A model generated the notes under the pieces. It was given only the letters and a program-made list of their open reading frames with translations. It ran no database searches and had not been told where the DNA came from. A program made the translations under genes and the position numbers. This document shows positions 19,262 to 64,000 of a stretch of DNA of 64,000 nt, one piece after another (within the stretch, counting starts at the first letter, position 1; every line of letters begins with the position of its first letter). This DNA comes from Squalus acanthias (lineage: Eukaryota): positions 67,582,001 to 67,646,000 of the forward strand of contig CM059432.1 in assembly GCA_030390025.1 (NCBI GenBank), in the 5' to 3' direction.

Positions 19262-20901
19262 TGTAAGGGGTTTCAAACGGTACTGATGCGAGGTTAGGCC
19301 TTCGTTGCCTATACTATTGCTTGCTCTGGTCTCCGGCCAGCCTTTTTGCAATAAGCACCTGTGAGTGGTTCGACCCACTCGCCCTTACGGTTCTGACACC
19401 TGGACTTAGATGCAAGGAGCAGTAATGCAGAGAAAAACTCAAATAGACCCGGTTGAATAGCACGAAATGAAAATCTTTATTGCATGGCGTCTAAAATCAT
19501 GAAATACATGTCATAGGCGCAAATCAAAGAGAGTACAAGTATACACACGTTCATAAAGCTTGGTCTATGGAAATGGGGAACACACGGCACATCGTAAAAC
19601 GGGGTACACATTATACCTTAACCTTATAAAAACCACCCTCCCTTTAATAATACCTAAACTACGTCTGGATTTGTAGGATCGTAAAACATGCTCACCACTC
19701 GTTTTACTTCGGAGATTTTAAAGTGAGGCACTCAGCTCGTTTCGCTGCAGCGCCTGACTGTCACGTGTTTGGAAGGGTTTCTGCACCCCACTTGTTTACT
19801 TTTGCTGCTGCGACAAGCAGGCCAGACTCTCTGTGGTCATGAAGCAGTCGATGGACTCAAACCGTCTTAAAATTCAAAGAAGGGTCTTCCTGTGCTGCGG
19901 CACATGTAGAAGTCGGTAGAACTCAAAGGAAAGCTCTTTTAGTTATATTTTCGGGCGCGGTCGGGGTTTACTGACCGTGGCGGTACGTGGAATTTCTTCT
20001 CGTCTTCTTCTCTTCTCGTCTTCTCGGGCCTCCGGGTCCAGACACCATTTACCGACACTCAGGATGGTGTACCCTGTTACTTGCCCTTGTCGAGGCGGCT
20101 CGTTCCGATTGAGCTCCACCCAACACTCGAATAACCGACCAGTACGGCTAAGAGTCAGGAGTCAACAGAGTCCAGAGAGAAAATCAAAAGTCCAAAAGTC
20201 AAGCCAGTTCGGGAAGAGCTTCAGCAAGGGTCAGCAGAGAGATAAGAGGAATAAGAGATCGATGGACATTTGTTCTCTATAGTTATACTGATGTGTCCGC
20301 TTTATCTCCCGCTCAAATCTAAATGTTTATCCTTTGTGTGATTTTGGCACTTAAAATCCCAGCATGGGGCGATTATCTTCTTAACGGGTTTCGGTAGCAC
20401 CTGAAACTGGCCAACTATCCGTTAATGTTTTCCCCATTGTAGAGCCAGCCAGGATGTGTATGAATCGTCTCCTCGACTGGTTTTGGGGCCCCCCGAATAC
20501 TTGCTTAATCACCCGCCAATGTCTCTCTCATTGTTGAGCCGGGGGGGTATTTGTGTATTGATGTGTCTGGATGGGCCTTCGATTGCCCAGTTCAATGATC
20601 CTTACTGTGCATAGGAAAATGATTCCAGCACTTATATCATTGCTATTGTTCACAATGCAAACGGGTTGCATCCTGTCTTTATCAATGTTTACCGAGTATG
20701 ATCCAATCTCATATTGAATGTATATTCGACGCCATCTTGTCTGCCCACTGTGTTTCTGGAAGCTTCTGCCACAATGCGTGGCAGCCATTTTACAGGCTTC
20801 TGTGTCCTTTATTATCAGGACAGCATTTCGTTTAATAAAACTGATCAATTGAATCTGCTTCTCTCATGTTATTTTGAATCGCGATAATTGCGAACTCTAC
20901 A
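19262..20901 (-). mobile_element. Solo LTR (1640 bp), diverged relative of the provirus LTR at 50847
   Basis: TG...CA ends; TSD GGAG (19258-19261 / 20902-20905); reverse complement begins tgtagagttcgcaattatcgcgatt versus tgtagaattcgcaatatatcgcgattt; shared aataaagatttt, gagtggtgagcatg, cacggtcagtaaa. Confidence 0.92.
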
Positions 20902-22925: not shown

Positions 22926-25737
22926 ACGTGCAAATATAGGGCAGTAATAGTAGGGGATTTCAACTTCCCTAATATTAACTGGGATAAAATTAGTGTGAAA
23001 GGCATAGAGGGAGCAGAATTCTTAAAATGCATTTCGGAGAACTTTTTTAGCCAGTACGTAGCAAGCCCAACAAGAGAGGGGGCGGTTCTGGATCTAGTTT
23101 TAGGGAATGAAGCTGGGCAGGTGGAAAAGGGTATCAGTGAGAGAGCATATTGGTGGTCGTGATCATAATTCAGTTAGATTTAGGGTAGTTATGGAAAAGG
23201 ACAAGGATAGACCAGGAATTAAAGTTCTCAATTGGGGAAAAGCTAATTTTACTAAGCTGAGAGGTGATTTAGCCAAAGTGGACTGGAGACAGAAACTTGA
23301 AGGTAAATCAATGTCAGAGCAGTGGGAGGCATTCAAGGAGGAGATAGTGAGGGTCCAGAGCAAGTATGTTCCCTTAAAGAAGAAGGGTGGGACTAACAAA
23401 TCTAGAGCTCCCTGGATGGCAAGGGGCATACAGGGTAGGATAAAGAAAAAAAGGGAAGTTTATGACAGATACCGAGGACTCAATACTGCAGAAAGCCGAG
23501 AGGAGTATAGAATGTGCAGGAGTGAAATTAAAAAGGAAATTAGGAAAGCAAAGAGAGGGCATGAAAAATATTGACAAGTAAAATCAAGGAAAACAAAAAG
23601 ATATTTTATAAATACATTAAGAGCAAAAGGATAAATAAAGTAAGAGTAGGGCCTATTAGGGACCATAAAGGTAACCTATATGAGGAAGCGGAAGACATGG
23701 GTACGGTTCTTAATGAATACTTTGTGTCTGTTTTCACAAAAGAGAGGGACGATGCAGACATTGCAACCAGGGAGGAGGAGTGTGAAATATTAGACTAAAT
23801 TAACATAGTGAAAGAGGAAGTATTAAGGGGGTTAGCATCTTTGAAAGTGGGTAAATCCCCAGGCCCGGATGAAATGTATCCCAGACTTTTAAGAGAAGTA
23901 GGAGAGGTGGAGGACTGCTAATGTGGTACTGTTGTTTAAAAAGGGAGAAAGGGATAGACTGAGTAATTACAGGCCAGTCAGCCTAACCTCGGTGGTGGGA
24001 AAATTATTGGAAAAAATTCTGAGGGACAGGATAAATCTTCATTTAGAAAGACACGGATTAATCAAGGACAGTCAGCATGGATTTGTTAAGGGAAGGTCGT
24101 GTCTGACTAACTTGATTGAATTTTTTGAGGAGGTAACAAGGAGGGTCGATGAGGGTAGTGCATTTGATGTAGTCTATATGGATTTTAGCAAGGCCTTTGA
24201 TAAGGTCCCACATGGCAGACCGGTCACAAAAGTAAAAGCCCATGGGATACAAGGCAAAGTGGCAAGTTGGATCCAAAATTGGCTCAGAGGCAGGAAACAA
24301 AGGGTAATGATTGAAGGGTGTTTTTGTGACTGGAAGTCTGTTTCCAGTGGGGTTCTGCAGGGCTCAGTACTGGGTCCTTTGCTTTTTGTGGTATATATCA
24401 ATGATTTGGACTTGAATGTAGGAATGTAGGAAGTATGATTAAGAAGTTTGCATACAGATGATACAAAAATTGTCAGTGTGGTTGATAATGAAGAAGAAAG
24501 CTACAGACTGCAGGAAGATATCAATGGACTGGTCAGGTGGGCAGAACAGTGGCAAACGGAATTCAATCTGGAGAAGTGTGAGGTAATGCATTTGGAGAGG
24601 GCTAACAAGGCAAGGGATTACACTATAAATGGTAGGATACTGAGAAGTGCAGAAGATCAGAGGGACCTTGGAGTGCATGTCCACAGATCCCTGAAGGTAG
24701 CAGGACAGGTAGATAAGGTGATTAAGAAGGCATATGTGATACTAGCCTTTATTAGCCGAGGCATAGAATATAAGAGCAGGGAGGTTATGCTTGAACTTTA
24801 TAAAACACTAGTTAGGCCGCAGCTAGAATACTGCATGCAGTCCTGGTCACCACATTACAGGAAGGATGTGATTGCACTAGAGGGGGTGCAGAGGAGATTT
24901 ACGAGGATGTTGCCTGGGCTGGGGAATTTTGCCTATGAGGAAAGATTGGATAGGCTGGGTCTGTTTTCCTTGGAACAGAGGAGGCTGAGGTGGGACCTAA
25001 TTGATGTGTATAAAATTATGAGGGGCCGAGATAGAGTGGATAGGAAGGACCTATTTCCCTTAGCAGAAGGGTGAATAACCAGGGGGCATAGATTTAAATT
25101 AATTGGTTGGAGGTTTAGAGGGGATTTGAGGAGAATTGTTTTCACCCAGAGGGTGGTGGGGGTCTGGAACTCACTGCCTGAAAGGGTGGTAGAGGTAGCG
25201 ACCTCATTACATTTAAAAAGTTCTTGGATATGCACTTGAAGTGTCGTAACCTACAAGGCTACAGACCAAGTGCTGGAAAGTGGGATTAGGCTGGATAGCT
25301 CTTTGTTGGCCGGCATGGACAAGATAGACCGAATGGCCTCCTTCTGTGCTCTTAATTTTTATAATTCTATGATTCTGTGAGTGAGAGAAAAACACAAGTA
25401 CATGTTCATATATCCTACCTTATGACATTTCGGCACAATTCAATAAAATGAATCCACTTTTAGCACTGTAAGATCATATAACCACCAAACAACAACAAAA
25501 GAAATAAAATAAGGTATCAACAAATGTTGATGTATTCTAGAAAAAATTTGAAAGATTTCATTTTGAATGACATGTAAGAATTGTTTTCCCCCAACTGACA
25601 ATTTGACGTTCAAATGGTGATCAGCTCAAATTCAAAAGTTCTTGTGATTTCCTAAGTGGTATTTTATAGTGGCAGCGCAATTGTGATGAAGACAGCATGT
25701 GATTGTCTAACATTTTAGGGATTAAAATAGAGTCTAA

Positions 25738-37574: not shown

Positions 37575-40248
37575 CTAAAACTAGAGAGATCAGAAGATCA
37601 AGATGTAGAATCGGTTTGGGTGGAGATAAAAAATAATAAAGGGAAAAAGTCTCTGGTGGGCGTAGTCTACAGGCCCCCGAACAGTAGCAATGCTGTTGGA
37701 CAGAGTATAAATCAACAAATAATGGAGGCCTGTAAAAAAGGTACGGCAATAATCATGGGTGATTTTAATCTCCATATTGGTTGGACAAATCAAATTGGCA
37801 ATGGTAGCCTTGAGGAGGAGTTCATCGAGTGCATCCGGGATGGTTTCCTAGAACAGTATGTAATGGAACCAACCAGGGAACAGGCTACCTTGGATCTGGC
37901 ACTATGTAATGAAACAGAATTAATAAATGATCTCACAGTAAAGGATCCTCTAGGAAAGAGTGATCATAGCATGGTTGAATTTCAAATTCAGTTGGAGGGT
38001 GAGAAAGTTGTATCTCAAACCAGTGTCCTGATCTTAAACAAAGGCAATTACAGTGGCATGAAGGCAGAACTGGCTAAAGTGGACTGGAAAAATAAATGAA
38101 AGGATAAAACAGTTGAAATGCAGTGGTGGACATTTAAGGAGATATTTCATAACTCTCAACAAAAATATATTCCAGTGAGAAAGAAAGAATTTAAGAGAAG
38201 GGAGCACCATCTGTGGCTAACTAAGGAAGTAAAAGATGGTATCAAATTGAAAACGAAGGCATACAATATTGCCAAGATTGGTGGGAGACCAGAGGATTGG
38301 GAAATTTTTAAAAACCAGCAAAGGATGACTAAAAAAAAAAATAATAAAGAGAGAGAAGATGAATTATGAGAGTAAACTGGCAAGAAACATTAAAACAGAT
38401 AGTAAGAGCTTCTACAGGTATATAAAAAGGAACAGGGTAGCTAAAGTGAACGTTGGTCCCTTAGAGGATGAGACTGGGGAATTAATAATGGGGAACGGGG
38501 AAATGGCAGAGACTCTGAACAAATATTTTATATCTGTCTTCACGGTAGAAGACATTAACAACATCCCAATAATGGATAATCAAGGGGCCACAGGGAGGGG
38601 GTAACTAAAGACAATCACTATCACTAAGGAAATAGTACTTGGTAAAATAATGGGACTAAAAGATGACAAGTCCCCTGGACCAGATGGCCTGCATCCCAGG
38701 GTCTTAAAAGAAGTGGCTGCAGAGATAGTGGATGCATTGGTTGCAATATACCAACATTCCCTGGACTCTGGAGAGGTCCCAGCGGATTGGAAAACCACAA
38801 ATGTAACACCCCTATTTAAGAAAGGAGGGAGACAGAAAGCAGGAAACTATAGACCAGTTAGCCTAACATCTGTCGTTGGGAAAATGCTGGAGTCCTTCAT
38901 TAAGGAAGCAGTAGCAGGGCATTTGGAAAATCATAATGCAGTCAAGCAGAGTCAGCATGGTTTTATGAAAGGGAAATCATGTTTAACACACTTGCTGGAG
39001 TTCTTTGAGGAGGTAACAAGTAGGGTGGACAAAGGTGAACCAGTGAATGTGGTGTATTTGGATTTCCAGAAGGCATTCAATAAGGTGCCACATAAAAGGT
39101 TACTGCATAAGATAAGAGCTCACGGAATTGGGGGTAATATATTAGCATGGATAGAGAATTGGCTAACTAACAGAAAGCAGAGAGTCGGGATAAATGGGTC
39201 ATTTTCCGGTTGGCAAACGGTAACTAGTGGGGCGCCACAGGGATCGGTGCTGGGGCCTCAACTATTTACAATCTACATTAATGACTTGGATGAAGGGACC
39301 GAGTGTAATGTAGCCAAGTTTGTGGATGATACAAAGATGGGTGGGAAAGCAAGTTGTGCAGTGGACTCAAAGAACCTGCAAAGGGATATAGACAGGCTAA
39401 GTGAGTGGGCAAATATTTGGCAGATGGAGTATAATGTGGGAAAGTGTGAGGTTATACACTTTGGCAGGAAAAATAAAAAAGCAAATTATTATTTAAATGG
39501 AGAGAGATTACAAAATGCTACAGTTCAGAGAGACCTGGGGGTCCTTGTGCATGAAACACAAAAAGTTAGCATGCAGGTACAGCAAGTAATCAAAAAGGCA
39601 AATTAAATGTTGGCCTTTATTTCAATAGGGTTGGAGTATAAAAGCAGGGAAGTCCTGCTACAACTGTACAGGGTGTTGGTGAGACCACACGTTGAGTACT
39701 GCATACAGTTTTGGTCTCCTTATTTAAGGAAGGATGTACTTGCATTGGAGGCAGTTCAGAGACGATTCATTAGGTTAATTCCAGAGCTTAGGGGGTTGAC
39801 TTATGAGGAAAGGTTGAGCAGGCTGGGCCTATACTCATTGGAATTTAGAAGAATGAGAGGTGATCTTATTGAAACATATAAGATACTGAGGGGGCATGAC
39901 AAGGTAATGCAGAGAGGATGTTTCCCCTCGTGGGGAAATCTAGAACACGGGGGCATAGTTTCAGAATAAAGGGTCACCCTTTTAGGACTGAGATGAGGAG
40001 GAATTTCTTCTCTCAGAGGGTCGTAAATCTGTGGAATTCTCTGACCCAGAGAGCTGTGGAGGCTGGGTAATTAAATACATTTAAGGTGGAGATAGACAAA
40101 TTTTTGCAAGATAAGGGAGTGAAGGGTTATGGGGAGCGGGCGGGGAAGTGGCTTTGAGCCCAAGATCAGCCATGATCTTATTGAATGGCGGAGCAGGCTC
40201 GAGGGGCCATGTGGCCTATTCCTGCTCCTATTTCTTATGTTCTTATGA
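37575..40248 (+). mobile_element. CR1 LINE ORF2 (endonuclease + RT), 5' truncated, few lesions
   Basis: VVYRPPN, MGDFN, SDH, SPGPDGLHP, NYRPVSLTS, PQGSVLGP, KFVDDTK; tail ttcttatgttcttatg. Confidence 0.95.
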
Positions 40249-49330: not shown

Positions 49331-50846
49331 TATAGACCAACCAAATCCCCATGAAAATACACAAACATATACAAACATGGATGTTGCAAATAGAGAATAT
49401 AGGGCCAAGGGACTGACTGGCCTACCCCTCTTCCTGTGTTTCTATGATTTGCTGAATGCCACTCTTGGCATGGAGCCTCACCCACCAAGAGCACAAATTG
49501 AAAATCACAGGCCTGCACCCCTTGATTTTCCATCCACTCAAATTAATTTAGTGGGCTGAACTGTATAGTGTACACTGTTTACTGCATTACAAAACTGTTG
49601 TTTAAGAAGTTAGAATATAAAGGTCAGTAAATGTTCACTGCTTGAAAGTGATTCTGCCTGAAATTGATATATGGAGTAATTTTCAAATGAATGAGCTGAA
49701 AATCAAAGGCATTACACACCCAGTTTTCCAATATGTGTTCCCAATGGATGAAGCTCTGCATTGTGAGTGCAGAAGATGGAAATTTGCCCCATTGGTTGCT
49801 TTCAAGAACAGCTGAATACTGTTTGGAACAATATGATCTCAAAGCTGACAACATTAGACAAATTCCTAGGTGTGAGATTTTCATTCATGATTTGTGTACC
49901 CGAGGCATTGAACTGTGCCAAAGAGCAAAAATAATTAAAAGCAGCAAGTTGCATCCATCAGATGGGCTCAGGAGACACCAAATGGCATTAGTATATTATT
50001 TTTCATGTTTCTCTTTTCTTACCTGAGGGCGAGCTTGCACATTGAGCCTAGCTGACAGGAACTTAAAGGGCTTAGCTGGTCATTTAAAGGGCAGAATTCT
50101 TGCCTGCAACATAATGGAAAGGGTTCAGAGCTGCAAAGTTCCTGGAAAATGGGGGGTTCTTCATCCATGTAAGCCCAGATTCACAGATGCTGCACTTGAA
50201 GTCATGCTGGATGAGTCGAAGAAAAGGAGGCTGTTCTCTTTGGCAATGAAGGTTACTCTGTCCAGAAAAGAGTGGGCCAACAGCAGGAGATAGCTGACAG
50301 GGTGTTTCCATTAACAACTAGTTTACACATGTATGCATATGACAAAGTGTTTCTCCTTATTGCTGCCCCATCCAAAATACTCATACAACATTACAGCCCT
50401 TTGAATGCTTACCATGCATGGACACATTGCAGCAGGGCACAAATGCAAGCTGCAAATTACAATTGAATTCTTAAAGGAGCTTTACATAGCAAATTCTTAC
50501 AGCACAGTCCAGCTCTAGGTTCATTCAATGTTACACATGATGGGCTATATGATGCACACTTATACATCACTCTATTTATTCCTTAAACTTGCAACATCTC
50601 AAGAGGACTTGGTGAACAAGCTGACACATAAGAGAAGGAAAAAGACCTGGGGGGGGAAATTCAGTTGCTTTGCACCTCCCGTTAGCGCCCTCTTAGGGCG
50701 CTAACGGGGCACAAAGCAACTAGTGCCCGGGCGCGGCACTGCCAACGCCTCCCGCGAAATTCAGTGGGAGGTTAGTGGCGGCGGTAACCATTAGCGCCCC
50801 ACAGCGCTGCGCCACCGGCGATGATGTCATCGCTGTGTGCAGCGCC

Positions 50847-52559
50847 TGTAGAATTCGCAATATATCGCGATTTGATTAATAAGGAGAAAACACAAAGTTT
50901 CGTTCAAACAGCTTTTATTTCAGCAGAATGCTGTCAGGTTTAAATTGGACACAAGCAGCCTGTAAAATGGCCGCCGCACCTCGTGACAGAACATTCTAGA
51001 CTTTTCAACAGGCAGACAAGATGGCGTTCCATTAAACATTTGTACAAGATCGATAACGATTCAGCACAGTGAAGATAATACACGAGACATTATGGGTTTA
51101 CAGTATAAACATAGATACTGGAATCGGTCTCCCAGGTACAAAGGAAAGCCATTGTACCGAGTAATCAAGGGCCCATCCAAAGGACATTAATATGTAAACT
51201 CCCAACGACTCTACGATGAGAGAGCCGTTAGCAGGTAGTTATACAGGACACTTGGAAGCCCCAAACCCCTCCAGGGAGAACACCGACCGATTTAACAATG
51301 GGAGAAGTATTAACAGGTACTCAAACATTCATGAGTAGCCCGAAACCCATTAAGAACGGAGATCACCCATACAAGACATTTGGGCGCCAAACCCTAAACA
51401 AAAGAATGGACATTATAGTTGGGCGGGAAACGGAAGATTTTTGCACTATAATTGCAGGCCCCAAACCGTCCACTCGCTCTCTTGTCTCTTGCCTTTTGCC
51501 TCGTGCTCTTGTTCGTGCTCCTGCGTTCGCTCGATTGCTCCTGTGTTTTATCCGGTCGATTCGTAACCTCGTGGCTGCTCCTGTGTACTCGTAGTTGGGT
51601 TTCTGCGTGCCTGTTGCCTCTTCTGAAAAGACTGTTGAACTTTCTGATCCGTTCGGATCTACCTCGTGTCGCGTAACGAAGACCTATGTTGGTAACTGGC
51701 AGCGGAACCAAAGGCCCGAGATGAGATGAGATGAGATGAGAGGAGAAGAGAAGAAGACCATATCCATCGCCACGGTCAGTAAATCCCGACCGCGCCTGTA
51801 GGTCGATCAGCCAAGTTTTCTCGCCAGGAAGTTTTCCTCTTTAAACTTCTAAGGAGGTTGGAACGTGGAAAACACATCGTATCAATGATATTGACAACGG
51901 TGCTCCAAGACTAATCTGTGAAACCCACCAACAGAGGTCTTCATCACAGCAGACGGTCCAGCCTACTAGCCGGAGCAGCAGAAGCAAGTAAACAAGTGGG
52001 ACCAGGAGATCTCCTGACCGACACGTGGGTGCTGCGGTGAAAAACATCCGATCAGCTATTCGGAATTTCTCCGAGTTATCACGAGTGGTGAGCATGAGTC
52101 TCGAGATCCTACGAAGCTAGTTTAGGATAGATATTGATAGGGGAGGGTTTAAAGATTAAGGATATTTGTAATGTGTGCCCCTATTTACGTTGTGCCGTTC
52201 GTTCCTCGTTTCCCTAAGATCGACTATATAACCGTTTGTAAGATTGTACTGTCATTAATCTGTGCTTATGACATGTATTTCATAATTTTAAGTATCATGC
52301 AATAAAGATTTTCCATTTCGTACCATTCAAACCAAGTCTACATGAGTTTTATCTCCATTACTGCTCTCGCATCTAAGTCCAGTGTCTAGAACCGTAAGGG
52401 AGAGTGATTCGAACCACTCACAGGTGTGTCTAGTGTTCCCAGACTGGCTGGAGACCAGAACAGGCAACCAGGCCTAGACCCACACTGACATACAGGCTGC
52501 ACAGAGCCGCGTGAATCTCACAGGCTACGAGACACGCAGGGTCAGGGGAATCCCTTACA
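50847..52559 (+). repeat. 5' LTR (1713 bp)
   Basis: TGTAG...TTACA; AATAAA 52301-52306; candidate TATA at ~51446; (GAGAT)n at ~51718-51740. Confidence 0.97.
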
Positions 52560-52563
52560 GAAA

Positions 52564-54375
52564 ATGGCGACCGCGGCAGGACACTGGCAGCGAGAGGGTA
52601 GTGTGTTAGATTTTGGAATGACTGTACGAAATGTTATGCAGGAAAAGATAGCGGATTATGTGTTTGGAAAGGTTAATCTAACTAAGAAGTGGATAAGTGA
52701 ATTGTTAGCGGATAAGAGCCCACTAGAGGCAGCTGAAAGGTGGACAGATAGTAAGGAACATAAAAAGGCAGTTGAGAAAGCAGTCTGGCTTATGTGCTAC
52801 AAAAGGCAGGTTCAGATTTCAAACCAGACCATTACAGCGCTAACAGCTCGAATCAGCCATTTAGAGGGAGAAATGGAGGAGAAGGTTTCTGGAGGGGAGG
52901 TGCTCATTAAGAATTTAAATGAGTTACACCAGGAAAGCCAGGAAGTCTCCAGTCACCTTAAAACAAGGATAGAGTATCTCGAGTGCCAGGTCACTGAAGC
53001 AAAATTGAACGAGAGTAGGTTAAAGGAAAGATGTAACCGCCAAGCTGCCCAGATAAGAACTCAAGAAGAGAGCTTAATGGGGGTTAGGTCGGCGTATAAG
53101 TTGGCCCTTGAGGATAAGTTTCAGGGAGCCGACCATAGCGCCTGCCAAAGGGAGATAGAGAGCCTCAAAAAGGCCGTGAATAATGCGAACGGCATGGTGT
53201 GCCTTATCAATCCGTCGGCGCACCAGCCGCTAGTAAATGAGAGATTTAGAAAATCCCCACCAAGTAAAGCAGAAGAAGTAGTAGCCACTGCGCCCTCCGC
53301 GCCACCCAGCTATTCAGAAACCTGGGTTAGGGAGGAAGCAATGGAAGAAACAAAAAAGCCCATTGAAAAGGAAGAAGAAAAGGGATCGTTGTATCCAGTA
53401 ACGGGTATTAAAAGGGGCCCAAGCAGAAACGGTGGGGAAGAACCGGGGGATCTCCTCGGACAGCTGGTGTTGCCTCACAGTTCACATCAGCTGAGAGCTA
53501 TGATAAACCACGTACGGAAGCTGACCGAGATAGACGACCCTTCCGTACATTTCAGGGAAGTTGAGCAAGCCGCAGCCATTAACGGCTGCGATGATGGGGA
53601 GACAGCAAAAATGCTGCTGTTCTCATTAGACAGCTCGGTCCTTCAGTGTCTCTCAGGCGAGAGCAAGAGGGGAAACAAAAGTTATGAGGAATTAAAAAAT
53701 GAGGTCCTAGAAGTAGTGGGGGCGAACGACGGAGGTCCGTTTGCTAGAGTGGGACAGACAGTGCAGATGGAGGGAGAACCCCCGAAGGTTTTTGCCGACA
53801 GGCTGTGGCCAGTATATGAGCGCAGCTGTCTAGGTGCGCCCGAGCGCGAAGATGTGGAAGGCGCCGCTCTAACCCATTGGCTTAGGTGCATAATAGCCAA
53901 CAGTTTACCAGCCGTTAGAGAGCAGGCAAAAGCCTGGTTCGATCCCAATGACCTCAACCTTACGGAAGAGTCGGTCTTGAATCGACTCACGTTAGGTTAT
54001 CGTAACATAAGGGGTATGACGACACGTCCCTTTAAGGGAAGAGTACATGAGGTACGACCCGCAGCCCCGGCTCAAAGAGAGTGGCATCAGGAGGGTAATC
54101 GCGCCCCACAGGCAAGTAATGCCTGTTACGGGTGTGGGAAGACAGGGCACTGGCGCAAGCACTGCAGGAACCCTTGGAAGGATTCCAAGGATAAAAATCC
54201 CGCGGTCCGAGCCCAGGCGCCTGTCCCGGCTAAGGAAGCCAAGGCACCCACCCCTCCCGACGACCTCGAAGCAGTGTTAGGAGCCATGCGCAAGCTGGTT
54301 TTGAATGCGCGTGGACAGGTGGCGGTCGCAACCGGCCCCGTAGGTGCCGCAGGACCGTCTAATAGTGCCCCATGA
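52564..54375 (+). CDS. gag: Gag polyprotein (coiled coil, late domains, capsid-like region, CCHC zinc knuckle), 603 aa
   Basis: Intact ORF directly after the LTR; CYGCGKTGHWRKHC (54124-54165); PSAPPSY (53293-53313); QMEGEPPKVFADRL resembles a capsid MHR. Start could be a downstream Met. Confidence 0.92.
   Translation: MATAAGHWQREGSVLDFGMTVRNVMQEKIADYVFGKVNLTKKWISELLADKSPLEAAERWTDSKEHKKAVEKAVWLMCYKRQVQISNQTITALTARISHLEGEMEEKVSGGEVLIKNLNELHQESQEVSSHLKTRIEYLECQVTEAKLNESRLKERCNRQAAQIRTQEESLMGVRSAYKLALEDKFQGADHSACQREIESLKKAVNNANGMVCLINPSAHQPLVNERFRKSPPSKAEEVVATAPSAPPSYSETWVREEAMEETKKPIEKEEEKGSLYPVTGIKRGPSRNGGEEPGDLLGQLVLPHSSHQLRAMINHVRKLTEIDDPSVHFREVEQAAAINGCDDGETAKMLLFSLDSSVLQCLSGESKRGNKSYEELKNEVLEVVGANDGGPFARVGQTVQMEGEPPKVFADRLWPVYERSCLGAPEREDVEGAALTHWLRCIIANSLPAVREQAKAWFDPNDLNLTEESVLNRLTLGYRNIRGMTTRPFKGRVHEVRPAAPAQREWHQEGNRAPQASNACYGCGKTGHWRKHCRNPWKDSKDKNPAVRAQAPVPAKEAKAPTPPDDLEAVLGAMRKLVLNARGQVAVATGPVGAAGPSNSAP
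52565..52582 (+). promoter_or_regulatory. Primer binding site, tRNA-Arg(TCG)
   Basis: tggcgaccgcggcaggac, 5 nt after the LTR; reverse complement of ...GTCCTGCCGCGGTCG-CCA, the vertebrate tRNA-Arg(TCG) 3' end as I recall it. Confidence 0.88.
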
Positions 54376-55557
54376 CTAGAGCCCACGCAGCCTGCCTACC
54401 TGTGTCCTTTTAAAAGACACGCACAGGAGGGGGTCTGCGGTGAGGAGGCCAGGTTAAAAGAGCAGGCCTTGCGGGAGGAGAACGCCCGCTTAATAGGGAA
54501 AATAGATGGGCTGGAAGGGCAGCTTAGAGAGCAGGCCCTGCGGGAGGAGAATGCCCGAGCAATGGGAAAGTTAGACGTGCTCAGGCTAGAAGGGCAGCTT
54601 AGAGAGATAAAAACAGCCTACAGGGTAGCCAGGAGCAGGGAGTATGAGGATTTAAAACAGGATAGAAATCTGCAGCCTCCAGCAGGTGAGATTTCACAGA
54701 AACAAGCAGGGGCGGTGGCCTGTCTTAAGGGAGGGGCCAGACCTGCGAGTGGGGAAGCACAGCCCCAGGTAGGACCACAAGGCACACAGGCAGGCATAGC
54801 AGCTTGCATCAGGGGAAGGGACATCCCGGACGATCATGCAGCGTTTTTCTGGAGTTGGGGGTTAGATGACGAAGAACCCAGGGTACCCTGGTCAGATGAG
54901 GATAGTGCAGATGAGCATAGTGATGATGACGGGTGGTTCCTGAGGAACGGTCTGGGGGGAATGGGGCCGATAGGTAGAGATCCACACGGGGTGGACACAC
55001 AAGCTGCAGGTCCCGAGGACAGGAGGGAGGAGCTAGAGGAGGCAGGGCCAGCCGCTATAGGAGCACAGAGAGTACCAATGTGGCTCCCAGAGATGTGGCC
55101 GCCCGCTTTGAACGTCCAGTCCTCAGGGGAGGCAGAGATCACGAGTGAAGGGCCGCCTGCTGGGCCGAGCAGGGCGGAGCCACGAACTGCCAGCCCCGAG
55201 GTTAGGGAGGCGGAGTCAGCGGAGGCGGAGCCGGCGACTGTGATGGAACCCCAGGTCATCCCGTTGGAGGTCTCGGAACCCGGTCCGTCCGTCACGGAAC
55301 CCCCGCCCATAGCAACTCCCCGTAGGTCAAGTAGAGAACCCCAGCCCAGGAGGATGTGGTCATGTCCCCAGACTGCCCCAAGGCGTAGACTTCAGGTTAA
55401 GATAACCCGGGTAGAGACAGGCCACATCGCAGCAGTAACAGGCTGCGGCAGATCAGAGGAAAGGGTCAGCGCAGCAACAGGCTGCGGCAGATCAGAGGGA
55501 AGGGTCAGTGCCCTCCCACCGTCGGGAAGAGCTCGCAGCAGCCTTCTCAGAATTTAA
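54376..55557 (+). CDS. ORF2 of unknown function in the pol position, in frame with gag; likely readthrough extension
   Basis: Open from the gag stop to 55557 with no early ATG; coiled-coil repeats then acidic/Pro-rich low complexity; no DTG/DSG, YxDD, HHCC or DDE motifs. Confidence 0.7.
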   Translation, partial: LEPTQPAYLCPFKRHAQEGVCGEEARLKEQALREENARLIGKIDGLEGQLREQALREENARAMGKLDVLRLEGQLREIKTAYRVARSREYEDLKQDRNLQPPAGEISQKQAGAVACLKGGARPASGEAQPQVGPQGTQAGIAACIRGRDIPDDHAAFFWSWGLDDEEPRVPWSDEDSADEHSDDDGWFLRNGLGGMGPIGRDPHGVDTQAAGPEDRREELEEAGPAAIGAQRVPMWLPEMWPPALNVQSSGEAEITSEGPPAGPSRAEPRTASPEVREAESAEAEPATVMEPQVIPLEVSEPGPSVTEPPPIATPRRSSREPQPRRMWSCPQTAPRRRLQVKITRVETGHIAAVTGCGRSEERVSAATGCGRSEGRVSALPPSGRARSSLLRI

Positions 55558-55868
55558 AGGGGCCGCCCTGAGAACGGGCGGCACTGTAAAGTTATTAGTT
55601 TAAGTTTTAAGTTTATAGTTCAAGGTTAAGTTTTAAGTTTATAGTTCAAGGTTAAGTTTGTAGTTTTAATAAGGCTAAGTTTGTAGTGTTTTTAACAGAA
55701 AACGATAAAATGATGGGAGTTTTAAGGCTAGGTTTAGAGGAAGTCTATTCAGCAAACGTTGAAGTTTACGTGAGGCGAGGTCAGGGGACCCGCTCACCCT
55801 TCACAAAAGCCAGAGACTTTTGCGAGGCTGGCTACCTCATTCTATCTGATCACAGGAACCAAGGAAGG

Positions 55869-58220
55869 ATGGAACGAATTCTAGTATTGCTCGTGGCAAT
55901 CGGATGTGGATTGGCCTATCGAGGCCACACCAAGGATGTCGTGGTGTTTGGATGTTCCGGGGACACGGCCCCCATCGCGGTGGATGGGACCGGAAGACGG
56001 AAGGCAGAGGGGACCAGCACCTATTTCCACAAGGGAAGGTGGCCAGGATGGCTGGGAACGAACTCAACGGAGTATTCCAGCACATCGGGGTTCGCCTACA
56101 AAGAGACTTCTTTAATGTGCCCCAAAGTAAGGATCATCGCACCCAGGATCAGCGTCACCGTCGGCAAACGGATTTGTTTGACCTGTAGTGGGGATGTCCC
56201 ATTGAGCCGATGGTGGTGGCTGCGAAAGCTGAGCAAAACTATGAGAAACTCTTCGGTCGAGTGGGAACGACTGGGTAATAATACCCATCGGACAATTACG
56301 GGGACAGACGGACAAGTGAAAGTCTGTTGGGACAAATGGTGGGAACCGGATGAGGGGATTTATGTATGTATGTGGGGGTCAAAGTACGTTTGCCCCAAAG
56401 GCATCTCCATATTTTTTATTAATCAGTGGCAGGATAACGGACAGGGGATGAGGTGGGATGCGAGCACCAGGGGGTGCGGAGCCCCATTCTCCCCGATCCC
56501 AGTAAATGCCACTGAACTCATTACGCGCCCACGCAAAGCCCCGCCCACGATTCCGGTGGTTCTAGCTGAGGAAGAAGGGTGCCCTAAAGCTAGTAAGGGA
56601 CCCGGGAACGGTTTGGTACTGGTCCCCACAGACCAGATACTATTTCAGGGGGTACATTACGCGGTGGCCTCGGTGATTTTAAATCTCACTGAGGTACGGT
56701 TACCAGAGTGGTGCCCCAAAAAGACGGAACAGTTGTATCAGGTCCTGTTGACCAAGATGTTCAGACAATTTTACGAGTTTGATTTTGCAGAAATTGATAA
56801 GACAAGTTTGTACACCGCACCGCAGGAAGTTTTGGATCAAGTAGGGAGGCAAAGAAGGGGTTTGGTGAACGATGCGTTCACTGCTTTTAACACAGGGACA
56901 TCTGTGGTCAACGCTCTAGACAGTGTGGAGCTGCAGACCCAGATTAATGGTTTAAAAACACAGTTAAAAGACATTCTAACAGATGAGAATAAAGTGGTAG
57001 GGTCAGGTCTGCACGAGGACCAAGCCATGACTCTCCATTTAAAGGAAATTATAGCAGAGCTGGAGAAACATGCGCGTACGGTAAATGCCCTGATCAGGGA
57101 AGATCGGAATGCATCCGATCAAGCTGCGCAGAACGAGGTGTGCGTGCTTTACGGGGCGTGGTTACTGGGCGAGGGCCGCAGTAATTTGGAGGATTTAAAA
57201 CAAGGTTTGGTTCCGTCCTGGATAAGTAACAAACACCTACGGGCGCTTCACCCTTTTCAGAACGCATTAAGTCCGTGCCAGCTCAGGCTAGCTTCAGAAG
57301 CTTACCCAGTCCCCGTGGACTGCGGACGTTCAAACCATACTATTATGGGAATAGTATTACGCATGCCGGTTTTGGGCAACACAGCAAAGCCCGCCCCGGT
57401 ATATCGGGTAGAGAACATTGGTGTCATTCAGGGGGGAGCCCACATTCGTTATGCAGCGGTTCCACCTTACGTCATCCGCTGGGAGCAAACGATGACAGGT
57501 ACAGATCTCTCTGGTTGTCGTGGCAGGGGAGCACACATAATACTGTGCCCCCAGCACTTGAATGCCTTTTTAACACCACAGTGCGGGTTCAGAACGGCTG
57601 GCGCCAAGTCCATGAATTGCACCATGGAGGCAATGGCACAAGATCATGTGCCTCCGCAGGTAGCATACATCGGGGGTGGAACATATTGTGTTACCACTGC
57701 AGCGCAACACTACCAGCATGGAAACCGTAGCCGGTGTCCGGTGAGTGACAGCAGTTTCTGTTTTAAACCCAGGGCTGAAGTTCAAGTAGCACAACAGCGA
57801 ATCATCCCAATCCCTGAACCATCCACTGTTCACCTCACAGTAAAAGAGAATTTCACCGACTTGCAGCGATTTGTCGCGCATTTTGGATACCTCATTCCCC
57901 CTCTCCCTGAGCATTTAACCAAACTTCTGAAAGCCGTCGCGGTATCACAGAAACATTTTTATACATTAGAGCAGAAAACTGTCGAAATAGGAACAGACAT
58001 TTTGGACATAGTGGTTCCACCGTGGTGGAATCTGTTCACCAATATTGAAGTGCCTTCATGGATCAGAATAGCCTCCCACATTTTAGTCGTCTGTCAAGTG
58101 TTTATTGTAGTGTACCTATTGGTCATACATTGTAAAAGAGACAAGCGCCTCACCAAGCATGAAAACACGGGAGAGTGGCGAGAACGTTACGTGCGCGTGC
58201 ACGATGAGAGCACCGTGTAA
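55869..58220 (+). CDS. env: Envelope / class I fusion glycoprotein, 783 aa, with N-terminal Ig-like domain
   Basis: Signal peptide MERILVLLVAIGCGLA; furin site RQRR 56847-56858; fusion peptide and heptads GLVNDAFTAFNTGTSVVNALDSVELQTQINGLKTQL; Cys-rich region; TM IASHILVVCQVFIVVYLLVI; about 10 NxS/T sequons. Frame is open from 55686. Confidence 0.92.
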   Translation: MERILVLLVAIGCGLAYRGHTKDVVVFGCSGDTAPIAVDGTGRRKAEGTSTYFHKGRWPGWLGTNSTEYSSTSGFAYKETSLMCPKVRIIAPRISVTVGKRICLTCSGDVPLSRWWWLRKLSKTMRNSSVEWERLGNNTHRTITGTDGQVKVCWDKWWEPDEGIYVCMWGSKYVCPKGISIFFINQWQDNGQGMRWDASTRGCGAPFSPIPVNATELITRPRKAPPTIPVVLAEEEGCPKASKGPGNGLVLVPTDQILFQGVHYAVASVILNLTEVRLPEWCPKKTEQLYQVLLTKMFRQFYEFDFAEIDKTSLYTAPQEVLDQVGRQRRGLVNDAFTAFNTGTSVVNALDSVELQTQINGLKTQLKDILTDENKVVGSGLHEDQAMTLHLKEIIAELEKHARTVNALIREDRNASDQAAQNEVCVLYGAWLLGEGRSNLEDLKQGLVPSWISNKHLRALHPFQNALSPCQLRLASEAYPVPVDCGRSNHTIMGIVLRMPVLGNTAKPAPVYRVENIGVIQGGAHIRYAAVPPYVIRWEQTMTGTDLSGCRGRGAHIILCPQHLNAFLTPQCGFRTAGAKSMNCTMEAMAQDHVPPQVAYIGGGTYCVTTAAQHYQHGNRSRCPVSDSSFCFKPRAEVQVAQQRIIPIPEPSTVHLTVKENFTDLQRFVAHFGYLIPPLPEHLTKLLKAVAVSQKHFYTLEQKTVEIGTDILDIVVPPWWNLFTNIEVPSWIRIASHILVVCQVFIVVYLLVIHCKRDKRLTKHENTGEWRERYVRVHDESTV

Positions 58221-58631
58221 TCGGAAAATGGCGTCACTCCCGCTCGCCGCGTGCGCCGCGGAAGTTTGTACTCATTGTAAATACGTTGGAAACTCGACAT
58301 GTTTAAGAGTTGGGATTTGTTTATTTTGGTGATGGTGTTGATTGTTTGGTTTTGGGTTTTGTTTTTTCCTTTCCCTGAATAAAAGACAAATATACAGGTG
58401 ATGCGTGAGGTATCGGCCTGGTTACGCCGGGAAGGAAAACAAGTGGTGTAAGTTTAAGGGCAAATGATGCCTACGGTGATATAAAATGTGATTTTCTTGG
58501 GAAATAAGGACGACACAGAGACCCTAGTTAAGTTAAAATTTATGGGATTAATTTACTGGATTCGGAGTGAAATCGAGATAAGATTGCTCACCACTGTGAT
58601 TTTTGATACGATAAGCGGAGTTATTCGCATC

Positions 58632-58643
58632 AACAGGAGGGAC
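58632..58643 (+). promoter_or_regulatory. Polypurine tract
   Basis: aacaggagggac immediately before the TG of the 3' LTR. Confidence 0.75.
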
Positions 58644-60359
58644 TGTAGAATTCGCAATATATCGCGATTTGATTAATAAGGAGAAAACACAAAGTTTCGT
58701 TCAAACAGCTTTTATTTCAGCAGAATGCTGTCAGGTTTAAATTGGACACAAGCAGCCTGTAAAATGGCCGCCGCACCTCGTGACAGAACATTCTAGACTT
58801 TTCAACAGGCAGACAAGATGGCGTTCCATTAAAAACATTTGTACAAGATCAATAACGATTCAGCACAGTGAAGATAATACACGAGACATTATGGGTTTAC
58901 AGTATAAACATAGATACTGGAATCGGTCTCCCAGGTACAAAGGAAAGCCATTGTACCGAGTAATCAAGGGCCCATCCAAAGGACATTAATATGTAAACTC
59001 CCAACGACTCTACGATGAGAGAGCCGTTAGCAGGTAGTTATACAGGACACTTGGAAGCCCCAAACCCCTCCAGGGAGAACACCGACCGATTTAACAATGG
59101 GAGAAGTATTAACAGGTACTCAAACATTCATGAGTAGCCCGAAACCCATTAAGAAACGGAGATCACCCATACAAGACATTTGGGCGCCAAACCCTAAACA
59201 AAAGAATGGACATTATAGTTGGGCGGGAAACGGAAGATTTTTGCACTATAATTGCAGGCCCCAAACCGTCCACTCGCTCTCTTGTCTCTTGCCTCTTGCC
59301 TCGTGCTCTTGTTCGTGCTCCTGCGTTCGCTCGATTGCTCCTGTGTTTTATCCGGTCGATTCGTAACCTCGTGGCTGCTCCTGTGTACTCGTAGTTGGGC
59401 TTTCTGCGTGCCTGTTGCCTCTTTGAAAAGACTGTTGAACTTTCTGATCCGTTCGGATCTACCTCGTGTCGCGTAACGAAGACCTATGTTGGTAACTGGC
59501 AGCGGAACCAAAGGCCCGAGATGAGATGAGATGAGATGAGAGGAGAAGAGAAGAAGACCATATCCATCGCCACGGTCAGTAAATCCCGACCGCGCCTGTA
59601 GGTCGATCAGCCAAGTTTTCTCGCCAGGAAGTTTTCCTCTTTAAACTTCTAAGGAGGTTGGAACGTGGAAAACACATCGTATCAATGATATTGACAACGG
59701 TGCTCCAAGACTAATCTGTGAAACCCACCAACAGAGGTCTTCATCACAGCAGACGGTCCAGCCTACTAGCCGGAGCAGCAGAAGCAAGTAAACAAGTGGG
59801 ACCAGGAGATCTCCTGACCGACACGTGGGTGCTGCGGTGAAAAACATCCGATCAGCTATTCGGAATTTCTCCGAGTTATCACGAGTGGTGAGCATGAGTC
59901 TCGAGATCCTACGAAGCTAGTTTAGGATAGATATTGATAGGGGAGGGTTTAAAGATTAAGGATATTTGTAATGTGTGCCCCTATTTACGTTGTGCCGTTC
60001 GTTCCTCGTTTCCCTAAGATCGACTATATAACCGTTTGTAAGATTGTACTGTCATTAATCTGTGCTTATGACATGTATTTCATAATTTTAAGTATCATGC
60101 AATAAAGATTTTCCATTTCGTACCATTCAAACCAAGTCTACATGAGTTTTATCTCCATTACTGCTCTCGCATCTAAGTCCAGTGTCTAGAACCGTAAGGG
60201 AGAGTGATTCGAACCACTCACAGGTGTGTCTAGTGTTCCCAGACTGGCTGGAGACCAGAACAGGCAACCAGGCCTAGACCCACACTGACATACAGGCTGC
60301 ACAGAGCCGCGTGAATCTCACAGGCTACGAGACACGCAGGGTCAGGGAAATCCCTTACA
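58644..60359 (+). repeat. 3' LTR (1716 bp)
   Basis: By eye about 3 substitutions and 4 small indels versus the 5' LTR; AATAAA 60101-60106. Confidence 0.97.
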
Positions 60360-61999
60360 CGCCCCACTCGCACCCCAGCCACAATCTTCAGTAGCACCCC
60401 TGACTTACCGCAGAACGATTTGTCCAACGGGCTCAGGGGGGCCTACCTGCAGCTGGGGCGGTGCTAATTAAAGGCGAGGTGCCGGGCGGCCATTTTTGTT
60501 GATGGCCGCCTGCCAGCACCTGCCTTCGTTGCCGTCCCTGGCCTCCTGAGCACCCCCCCCCCCGCCCCCCATGATGTGCCGGCTGTGCTCCATGAGCCCA
60601 GCAATTCTCTTGAGTGCCGGGCTCTTTTGCCGGCACTCCGATCCCGGTGGCCCAGCTGGGCTCCGGGTCACGCTGCGCAAGGCCCCTCCCCTTTAAGAAG
60701 GGGAGGAAGGCCTGCAATACCACGGCACATAGCACCACAATATTCCTTCGCAGCGCCCCAAGAGGGAGGCGGGGCACTTCCAGTAGCGCCCCGCTTCCCT
60801 CTTGGGGCGCTACCGATGAATTTCGGCCGCGGGGACGCTAAAAGTAGCCACCCGATACACGCCTTCTGCAGTTGTCAGTGTTTTCGATCGGTGCTGCTGC
60901 AGGGGGCGGAAGTCAATTTCGGGTATGGGGCGCTACCGGGGTGATGCGCACGGCGATGACATCACAATTTCCGGGTGAAGGAGATCGAGGCGCATCACTG
61001 TAGCGCTGCCGCAAAACTCCCGCTGAATATGGCAGGAGTTGATGTCAGCGCCCCGCCCGGTCGCAAAGCCATTTGCGCCCCGTTAGTGACCCCCTGGGCT
61101 ATATGATGCATACCCAGGGGCACTAACGGGAGGCACAAAGGCACCCAATTTCACCCCCTGAGAACCTTGCTGGTTTTTATAACCAGAGGCAAATTTGTTG
61201 TACTGCAGGACTGAGCTGAGAAAAGCAGACTCCCCCATGAACAACTCATTTGCTTTGAAATCTAGGATAAAGCTGTTGCACTTTCTGTACAAAGACCATG
61301 CTACTGGTAGGCAACCAGTGGAGGAAATTTGTGCAGTGGGTGGAAAATAAGTGAGTTCCCAAATTTATGGTCCTCACCTGCAGAATTTTCACTTTTACCA
61401 GGAATTTCCAAGCTATTGTAATGCATGTTATAGAAAGATTGGTACCAAAATGAACATTTCAAATGACCATATTTAGTTGCTAGATGGCCCTATTGGGAAA
61501 GATATCAAGCCCTTTTTAAAAATTTTATAATTTGTACTTTACCATGTGTATCACACTGTCCAGTAATTTATAATTTATTCAGTAAGCTGGCCAGTAGCAA
61601 TATTTAATTATTGATTTCTTTTTTAATGATCCAATCCGAGCTATTAACACGCTGTCAACAAATTATAGAATTACTTGGCCAGTTGCTGATCTAAAAACTG
61701 CTAATGGCACATCAACCACTGTGACTTTAGTCTTTTTCTATTATAATTCTCATTTGGAGAGGTCATGCTCATGTAATTAGGTGCAACCTCCTTGTCAGAA
61801 AATGTCACACATGTTTTGGAATTTTGGTAATCCGTTTTAAAAAATAAGCTTTGTATAAAGATTCTAATTTCAATGGTAAGACTAGACTGGATATATCTTG
61901 CTTACTAATCGATCTCCTGAGACATTGCTCATAGGTAGTCAAGGCCAAGGGCACTTTTCAGATCTGGCAGGGTTAGAAGGTGGGTGATAATCAAACCAA

Positions 62000-63291: not shown

Positions 63292-64000
63292 TGTAAGGGT
63301 TTTTGTGTGTGACAACGCCTGTGGCTCTGTGCTCAGCCTGGGTGCTAGTGCGAGGTTAGGCCTTGTTGCCTGTTTTGGTCTCCAGCCAGTCTGGGAGCAC
63401 TAGACACCTGTGAGTGGTTCGACCCACTCGCCCTTACGGTTCTGACACTGGACTTAGATGCGAGAGCAATAATGGAGAGAAAACTCAGGTAGACCCGGTT
63501 GAATGGTACGAAATGGAAAATCTTTATTGCATATTATTCAAGATTACGAAATACATGTCATAAGCACAGATTAATGACAGGACAATCTTACACGCAGTTA
63601 TGTAACTAATTTTAGGGAAACGAGGAACGAACGACACATCGTAAATGGGGGCACACATTACAGTTATCCTTAAAACTTAAACCCTCCCCTATCAATACCT
63701 GCTCTAAACTAGATTTGTAGGATCGAGACTCATGCTCACCACTCGTGATAACTCGGAGAATTCCGAAAACTCTGCTCGGATGTTTTTAGCGCAGCACCTG
63801 ATCACCCACGTGTTGATCAGGGGTCTCTGTGCCCCACTTGTTTACTCGTTTCTGCTCCGGCTAGCAGGCTGGACCGTCTGCTGTCATGAAGATCTGTGTT
63901 GTCCTCGGAGTTCCGATACGACTCAAAAAATAGTCTTCCTGTGCCCTCGCCCCGATGCGATAAAACTCGAAGAATGGTCTTCCGATGCCAGTTCTGTAAA
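63292..64000 (-). mobile_element. LTR of the provirus family, running off the window end
   Basis: tgtaaggg start; reverse complement aligns to ~51900-52559; no PBS on its left flank, so it is a 3' or solo LTR. Confidence 0.93.

Follow-up and report, generated by a model that had tools for sequence, protein, structure and literature searches.

Lokiretroviruses have been described as elements with a gag-pol-env layout, a dual RNase H, an F-like envelope protein (Env) with an RXXR site, and young long terminal repeats (LTRs) (PMC7947760). In the same account, their reverse transcriptase (RT) falls outside Gypsy and beside retroviruses, their integrase is nearest to CGIN1/NYNRIN, and their Gag capsid is like those of MuLV and Ty3; further background is given in PMC6407205, PMC10435555, and bioRxiv 10.1101/2023.10.26.564294. 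The closest described non-autonomous endogenous retroviruses (ERVs) are the following: the zebrafish BHIKHARI elements Bik-1 and Bik-2, reported as pol-less endogenous lokiretroviruses that were recently mobile and have an intact coiled-coil Gag (bioRxiv 10.1101/2024.03.25.586437); the mouse IAP IΔ1 element, a highly successful non-autonomous form with an in-frame fusion of gag to a pol remnant, for which help in cis is reported (PMC6466679); and the cattle ERVK[2-1-LTR] C/D pair, in which the center of the element was exchanged for an old retroelement piece and the flanks were retained, with trans-complementation and recombination between the morphs (PMC10924933). The last source cites MusD/ETn and KoRV/RecKoRV as comparable pairs.

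The provirus analyzed here is comparable to these three systems and lies in a 64-kb stretch of the Squalus acanthias genome, referred to below as the window (Table 1). As the initial annotation had described, its 1.7-kb LTRs were nearly identical, with 3 substitutions and 5 single-base gaps (BLAST identity, 99.5%), its 4-bp target site duplication (TSD) was perfect, a primer-binding site (PBS) and a polypurine tract were present, and gag, ORF2, and env were all open. The PBS corresponded to the last 15 bases of a genomic tRNA-Arg(TCG) gene plus CCA. The 3'-end pattern of this tRNA had 424 matches genome-wide, and the only one confirmed to be a tRNA gene was the copy on contig C23; at ~39 to 42 Mb of contig C26, the same 3' end recurred in large tandem arrays spaced at 1,623 bp. 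The first gag ATG (52564) overlapped the PBS (region 52564-52582), and the Gag N-terminal peptide was conserved in a sister lineage. The positions of TATATAA (52225) and AATAAA (52301) in the 5' LTR suggest a long U3 of ~1.4 kb, and the AG at 55854-55855 ahead of env is a candidate splice acceptor.

Table 1. Features of the provirus, in window coordinates
Feature	Position	Strand	Basis
Left target site duplication, CGCC	50843..50846	+	Compared with right flank
5' LTR, 1713 bp, TGT...ACA	50847..52559	+	LTR pair comparison
Primer-binding site, 18 nt, tRNA-Arg(TCG)	52565..52582	+	Match to genomic tRNA gene
gag, 603 aa	52564..54375	+	ORF list
gag stop, UGA-CUAG context	54373..54379	+	Motif; readthrough itself inferred
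ORF2 part 1: first 11 codons of pol, diverged	54376..54407	+	
ORF2 part 2: ~81-aa cassette	54408..54651	+	
ORF2 part 3: junction variant of young subfamily	54652..54741	+	
ORF2 part 4: C-terminal tail of Pol, beyond integrase	54742..55557	+	
T-rich spacer; 23-26-nt repeats, candidate splice acceptors	55558..55868	+	
env, 783 aa counted from signal-peptide Met	55869..58220	+	
Polypurine tract	58632..58643	+	
3' LTR, 1716 bp, TGT...ACA	58644..60359	+	
Right target site duplication, CGCC	60360..60363	+	

The insertion target was a GC-rich palindromic repeat with inverted arms at 50660-50846 and 60360-60964. The statement that all other elements in the window are decayed fitted a rough check, in which the other ORFs were at most 333 aa long, two of the five scanned were RT fragments, and internal repeat pairs were 64 to 90% identical. 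The RT fragments of decayed repeats at 38605-39603 and 24439-25071 are probably LINE-type. Two minus-strand stretches, 63323-63901 and 19279-19844, were relics of older, incomplete LTRs of this family (85% and ~75% identical to the element LTR, respectively).

No protease, YxDD, or intact HHCC motif was present in the six frames of the 6.08-kb interior, where three LPQG and three GPF matches all lay in unrelated contexts, and a Pfam search of gag, ORF2, and env found no Pol family. The claim that pol is missing thus stood for the enzyme motifs and failed for ORF2, whose first 11 and last ~271 residues were pol-derived. ORF2 (393 aa, 54376-55557) had no start codon and lay in the gag frame directly behind the TGA. 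Five loci matched the window element only from 54742 onward, and at the four with the upstream part visible, LTR and gag were 97 to 99% identical to those of the window element; the pol tail and env were 99% identical. Behind the same stop codon, these loci had a long ORF encoding protease, RT, tether, RNase H, and integrase, with PF17919/PF17917 at residues 470 to 602 and PF00075 at residues 650 to 793 of Pol (dual RNase H). The pol-bearing helper with similar LTR ends and PBS whose existence had been anticipated was thereby found, and within the same family; all of its frames were open in 3 of the 20 pol-bearing copies sampled. Since the window element had 334 bp where the helpers had 3,676 bp, ORF2 was recognized as a chimera of a pol start, a cassette, and a Pol tail. 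The contrast drawn earlier with an ordinary deletion derivative was not upheld, as pol had been replaced within the element's own helper family and had left remnants in ORF2.

A 26-mer across the pol-less junction had 914 matches in the genome (control, 0), and a pol-bearing 26-mer had at least 1,375 (an undercount; control, 0). An LTR-end pattern was discarded as a total copy counter because it caught only a minor allele (49 matches; control, 16). Among the 17 best-matching pol-less copies, 16 had their own 4-bp TSD, and all 17 had 0 to 3 LTR substitutions. In a systematic sample comprising every fifth of the first 100 matches listed (n = 20 per morph), LTR pairs could be resolved for 12 of the pol-less copies, of which 8 had a perfect TSD, 2 belonged to tandem arrays, and 2 were imperfect; LTR divergence among the 12 was 0 to 0.67%. 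Thus, hundreds of insertions of the pol-less form occurred with proper TSDs, and the proposal that it integrated in this form, using Pol supplied in trans, gained support from both the junction count and the individual TSDs. Contigs from other public studies spanned the 5' junction (one run) and the 3' junction (two runs); because both cassette junctions were bridged, an assembly collapse was contradicted. An empty-site look-up at the window insertion found the flank uncovered in three of four runs. At loci L090, L092, and L099 and on C430 and C21, the pol-less form occurred in head-to-tail arrays (LTR-interior-LTR) spaced at ~7.7 to 7.8 kb, and locus L040 had an 8-bp direct repeat at its flanks in place of the 4-bp TSD.

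The same 5' junction was present on backbones whose gag was 80 to 99% identical to that of the window element. The pol-less label required nine changes on the gag tree (39 rows) and eight on the env tree (31 rows), both of which left out copies without a near-full match and are distorted by recombination inside gag and env. The nearest neighbor of the window copy on the trees was pol-bearing, and AU tests rejected a single pol-less clade for gag (p 8e-131) and env (p 1.7e-4). Because pol-less and pol-bearing copies interleaved, the pol-less form is read as a long-lived recombining morph with no satellite lineage of its own; the junction on divergent backbones and the tree results together indicate that this morph followed helper evolution by recombination. 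The mixing of haplotypes could also stem from gene conversion among integrated copies. A strict satellite virus has little sequence in common with its helper; the window element was ~99% identical to its helpers outside the 334 bp, and the pol-less copies formed no clade. The attributes of a trans-complemented ERV morph were found instead: an inactivating structure common to many independent insertions, a competent partner sharing its LTR ends and PBS, and, on the gag and env trees, recombination with that partner. Between the subfamilies of loci L085-L124, gag, LTR, and pol tail were 74 to 80% identical, compared with 87 to 94% for pol core and env; this fast divergence of gag, LTR, and tail occurred despite LTR pairs showing recent insertion.

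A second pol-deleted family was encountered among five older relatives that were fetched. Two of these, L127 and L129, had gag, env, and a pol cut to in-frame blocks (~residues 1-90, 780-855, and 1137-1171, followed by the tail), with the same type of stop upstream and a gag 37 to 42% identical to that of the window family. The frame into the tail was kept in both copies inspected (n = 2), each of which had post-insertion lesions, and the deletion junction of this older sister family had 342 matches with at most one mismatch. Its breakpoints were unlike those of the window family; therefore, pol-less elements with gag plus env originated on at least two occasions.

Several lines of evidence bear on the family to which the element belongs. 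Env had an RQRR cleavage site at residue 327 followed by long helices, and a hydrophobic transmembrane segment near residues 735-753. Its structural model (mean pLDDT 61, with better confidence over the C-terminal two-thirds) had the F proteins of hPIV3 (E 7e-11), RSV, PIV5, and henipavirus as top Foldseek matches and also matched F-like glycoproteins of other viruses; thus, Env models as a paramyxo/pneumovirus F-like fold, as in lokiretroviruses. The Env features of that group (relation to the F protein of Mononegavirales, signal peptide, cleavage site, fusion peptide, coiled coil, and transmembrane segment) were recovered in the window element, and the tether with a second RNase H was recovered in helper Pol. 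By sequence, PF00523 was detected in 0 of 38 Env homologues, and Env searches of Pfam and PDB returned nothing. The closest named Env relatives were from a skate and a sawshark. The N-terminal part of env (~56130-56370), where the model was poor, gave an Ig_3 match at E 0.61 (one homologue, E 0.0085), a very weak hint that an immunoglobulin-like head precedes the F-like part. Helper RT fell in a four-row clade (SH-aLRT 95) that was sister to retrovirus-type RTs and outside Gypsy, in a tree with 43 of 49 rows and no labeled loki reference sequence among them. For the integrase comparison, the best named homologue was “NYNRIN-like” (43%), an automatic name. Gag had a long N-terminal helix/coiled coil and one CCHC knuckle; a helical region at the expected position is presumably the capsid domain, in a single-sequence model of low confidence (pLDDT 44) that was too poor for a capsid-fold search against MuLV/Ty3. 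Because the RT tree held no labeled loki sequence, membership is likely and short of shown, and the family is best called lokiretrovirus-like.

The explanation that we favor, and regard as probable, is that the provirus belongs to an active lokiretrovirus-like ERV family as a pol-less morph that is complemented in trans and recombines with its helpers. Sequence comparison indicates that the enzymatic core of pol (~residues 12-1218) was replaced once by a piece resembling the Gag coiled coil of a sister lineage. After the replacement, the frame remained open between the gag stop and the Pol tail, and gag, env, and LTR of the pol-less copies track those of pol-bearing relatives. The pol-less RNA would be copackaged with helper RNA and Gag-Pol, helper enzymes would carry out both tRNA-Arg-primed reverse transcription and integration, and template switching would repeatedly move the cassette onto current helper backbones; copackaging and template switching are proposed by likeness to the cattle ERVK C/D pair described in PMC10924933. 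Retention of gag, pol tail, and env would reflect cis signals inside them together with refreshment by recombination; no cis signal was located in the pol-less element.

The state of gag and env has a bearing on a different reading, in which the pol-less form is a cooperative or infectious satellite that builds enveloped particles from its own Gag and Env with little helper Gag-Pol, and in which selection acts in the pol-less genome. We consider this reading doubtful. It agrees with the dual origin of the gag-plus-env layout and with the good preservation of both genes: coverage reached at least 95% in all 21 pol-less copies for gag and in 19 of the 21 for env, none of the pol-less copies had a gag or env stop codon in common with another, and the 20 sampled included 18 with an open gag, 17 with an open ORF2, 13 with an open env (plus one open with a variant end), and 12 with all three open. 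Pairwise dN/dS was about 0.25 for gag (mostly 0.2 to 0.3) and 0.04 to 0.13 for env, which is under strong purifying selection. The env variants confined to sampled pol-less copies (14 synonymous and 4 nonsynonymous) also spoke for this reading, but the signal failed its control. A marker of the env haplotype of pol-less copies had 1,117 genome matches; the 62 on contig C1 comprised 23 pol-less, 2 pol-bearing, and 37 without assignment, and among 19 of the last group that were checked, the place of the cassette held integrase in 13, with a cassette in 1, gag in 2, and no match in 3. Selection on env specific to the pol-less copies was therefore rejected; since helpers carry the same env haplotypes, they may be the source of the purifying selection. 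Gag variants seen in pol-less copies alone (omega 0.54, p 0.08) also weigh against a satellite. Use of their own Gag and Env by pol-less copies, and infectivity, are unproven.

The trans-complemented morph that we favor also has to accommodate ORF2. Its cassette had a 23-aa internal repeat and was absent from helper pol; in many copies it was joined directly to Pol at ~residue 1219, the window subfamily having a longer variant. Its nearest sequences were Gag coiled coils from an older sister lineage that the same genome carries (38 to 42% identity); the direct donor was not found in this search. Heptad-preserving shuffles reached the cassette score in 0, 1, and 0 of 1,000 cases for three sister Gags, compared with 9 of 1,000 for the element's own Gag and 251 of 1,000 for Env. 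Capture from a related gag is thus the best reading. Derivation from the element's own gag (BLASTP E 1.4) was set aside in favor of the better-fitting sister Gag, and the chimeric pol make-up ruled out ORF2 as a wholly new gene. No cassette homologue was found among 1,829 protein database candidates of 216 to 688 aa. Of the 20 copies sampled per morph, 18 pol-less and 17 pol-bearing ones retained TGACTAG at the gag stop, which corresponds to a known readthrough context (UGA-CUAG; PMC4132726); folding of 25 variants gave no support for a conserved stem-loop after the UGA (z -2.7 to +1.8, with differing folds). The ORF2 frame was open in 17 of 20 despite lengths of 339 to 405 aa, and its amino acid evolution is close to neutral: omega was 0.57 for the cassette (p 0.14; 9 synonymous and 13 nonsynonymous shared variants) and 0.7 to 1.2, about neutral, for the Pol tail, where pairwise dN/dS was 0.6 to 1.0 in most comparisons. 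Most likely, the open frame is an aid in cis (translation or protection from decay) and does not encode a sequence-specific protein. Readthrough is reported to shield reporter RNAs from decay in a manner dependent on the length of the downstream ORF (PMC5360307), and by analogy a cis role for translation through ORF2 is plausible.

Alternatively, the Gag-ORF2 readthrough product might be a functional Gag-Pol decoy whose extra coiled coil coassembles and favors packaging of its own RNA, an idea modeled on the cis-acting fusion protein of IAP IΔ1 (PMC6466679), which is its precedent. Such a decoy would draw on the retained readthrough context, the similarity of the cassette to a Gag coiled coil, and its in-frame duplication. 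Divergence of the cassette from old to young copies was also lower than that of gag: its dS was 0.23 and 0.14 for two old copies, one of which had a gag dS of 0.49. However, the cassette omega was indistinguishable from neutral, the Pol tail was neutral, and the second pol-deleted family lacked such a cassette, and we judge the decoy unlikely. A broader proposal is that the lineage repeatedly splits into an enzyme-supplying morph and an enzyme-free, particle-supplying morph, the latter making Gag, F-type Env, and a readthrough decoy and spreading between cells in mixed particles. This is speculative and improbable; if true, an enveloped retrovirus family would have evolved a division of labor at least twice within a single genome. 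Finally, although 2 of the 12 resolved copies lay in tandem arrays, a single-locus deletion, assembly collapse, or segmental duplication is refuted by the counts, given junction matches over many contigs, TSDs unique to copies, and junctions spanned in contigs of other studies.

A literature search, with most subscription journals and repeat databases outside its scope, found no gag-plus-env, pol-less loki-like element. A parasite of a parasite is a known arrangement; the literature searched yielded none that keeps gag and env intact, carries a captured Gag helix in a readthrough frame, and has originated more than once. The window family also points to a recently active loki-like lineage in a cartilaginous fish, a host class that is unnamed in the text of PMC7947760. 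As described in the sources cited above, the known systems differ from it in several respects. IAP IΔ1 is a plain deletion form without env and with an incomplete gag (PMC6466679), whereas the window element has whole gag and env and a foreign Gag-like piece behind a stop in a readthrough context. The D-type cattle ERVK has no intact ORFs (PMC10924933), whereas 12 of 20 copies here had three open frames. Bik-1 and Bik-2 have gag only, without env, and their partner was not found in the reference genome (bioRxiv 10.1101/2024.03.25.586437), whereas the window family has retained env and has an abundant helper. In these accounts, the compared non-autonomous ERVs keep no ORF, gag alone, or an env-less gag-pol fusion. 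The roughly one thousand recent copies with intact gag and env, a known helper, and a second origin provide a data set for the cis needs of trans-complementation and for whether defective morphs cooperate with or parasitize their helpers.
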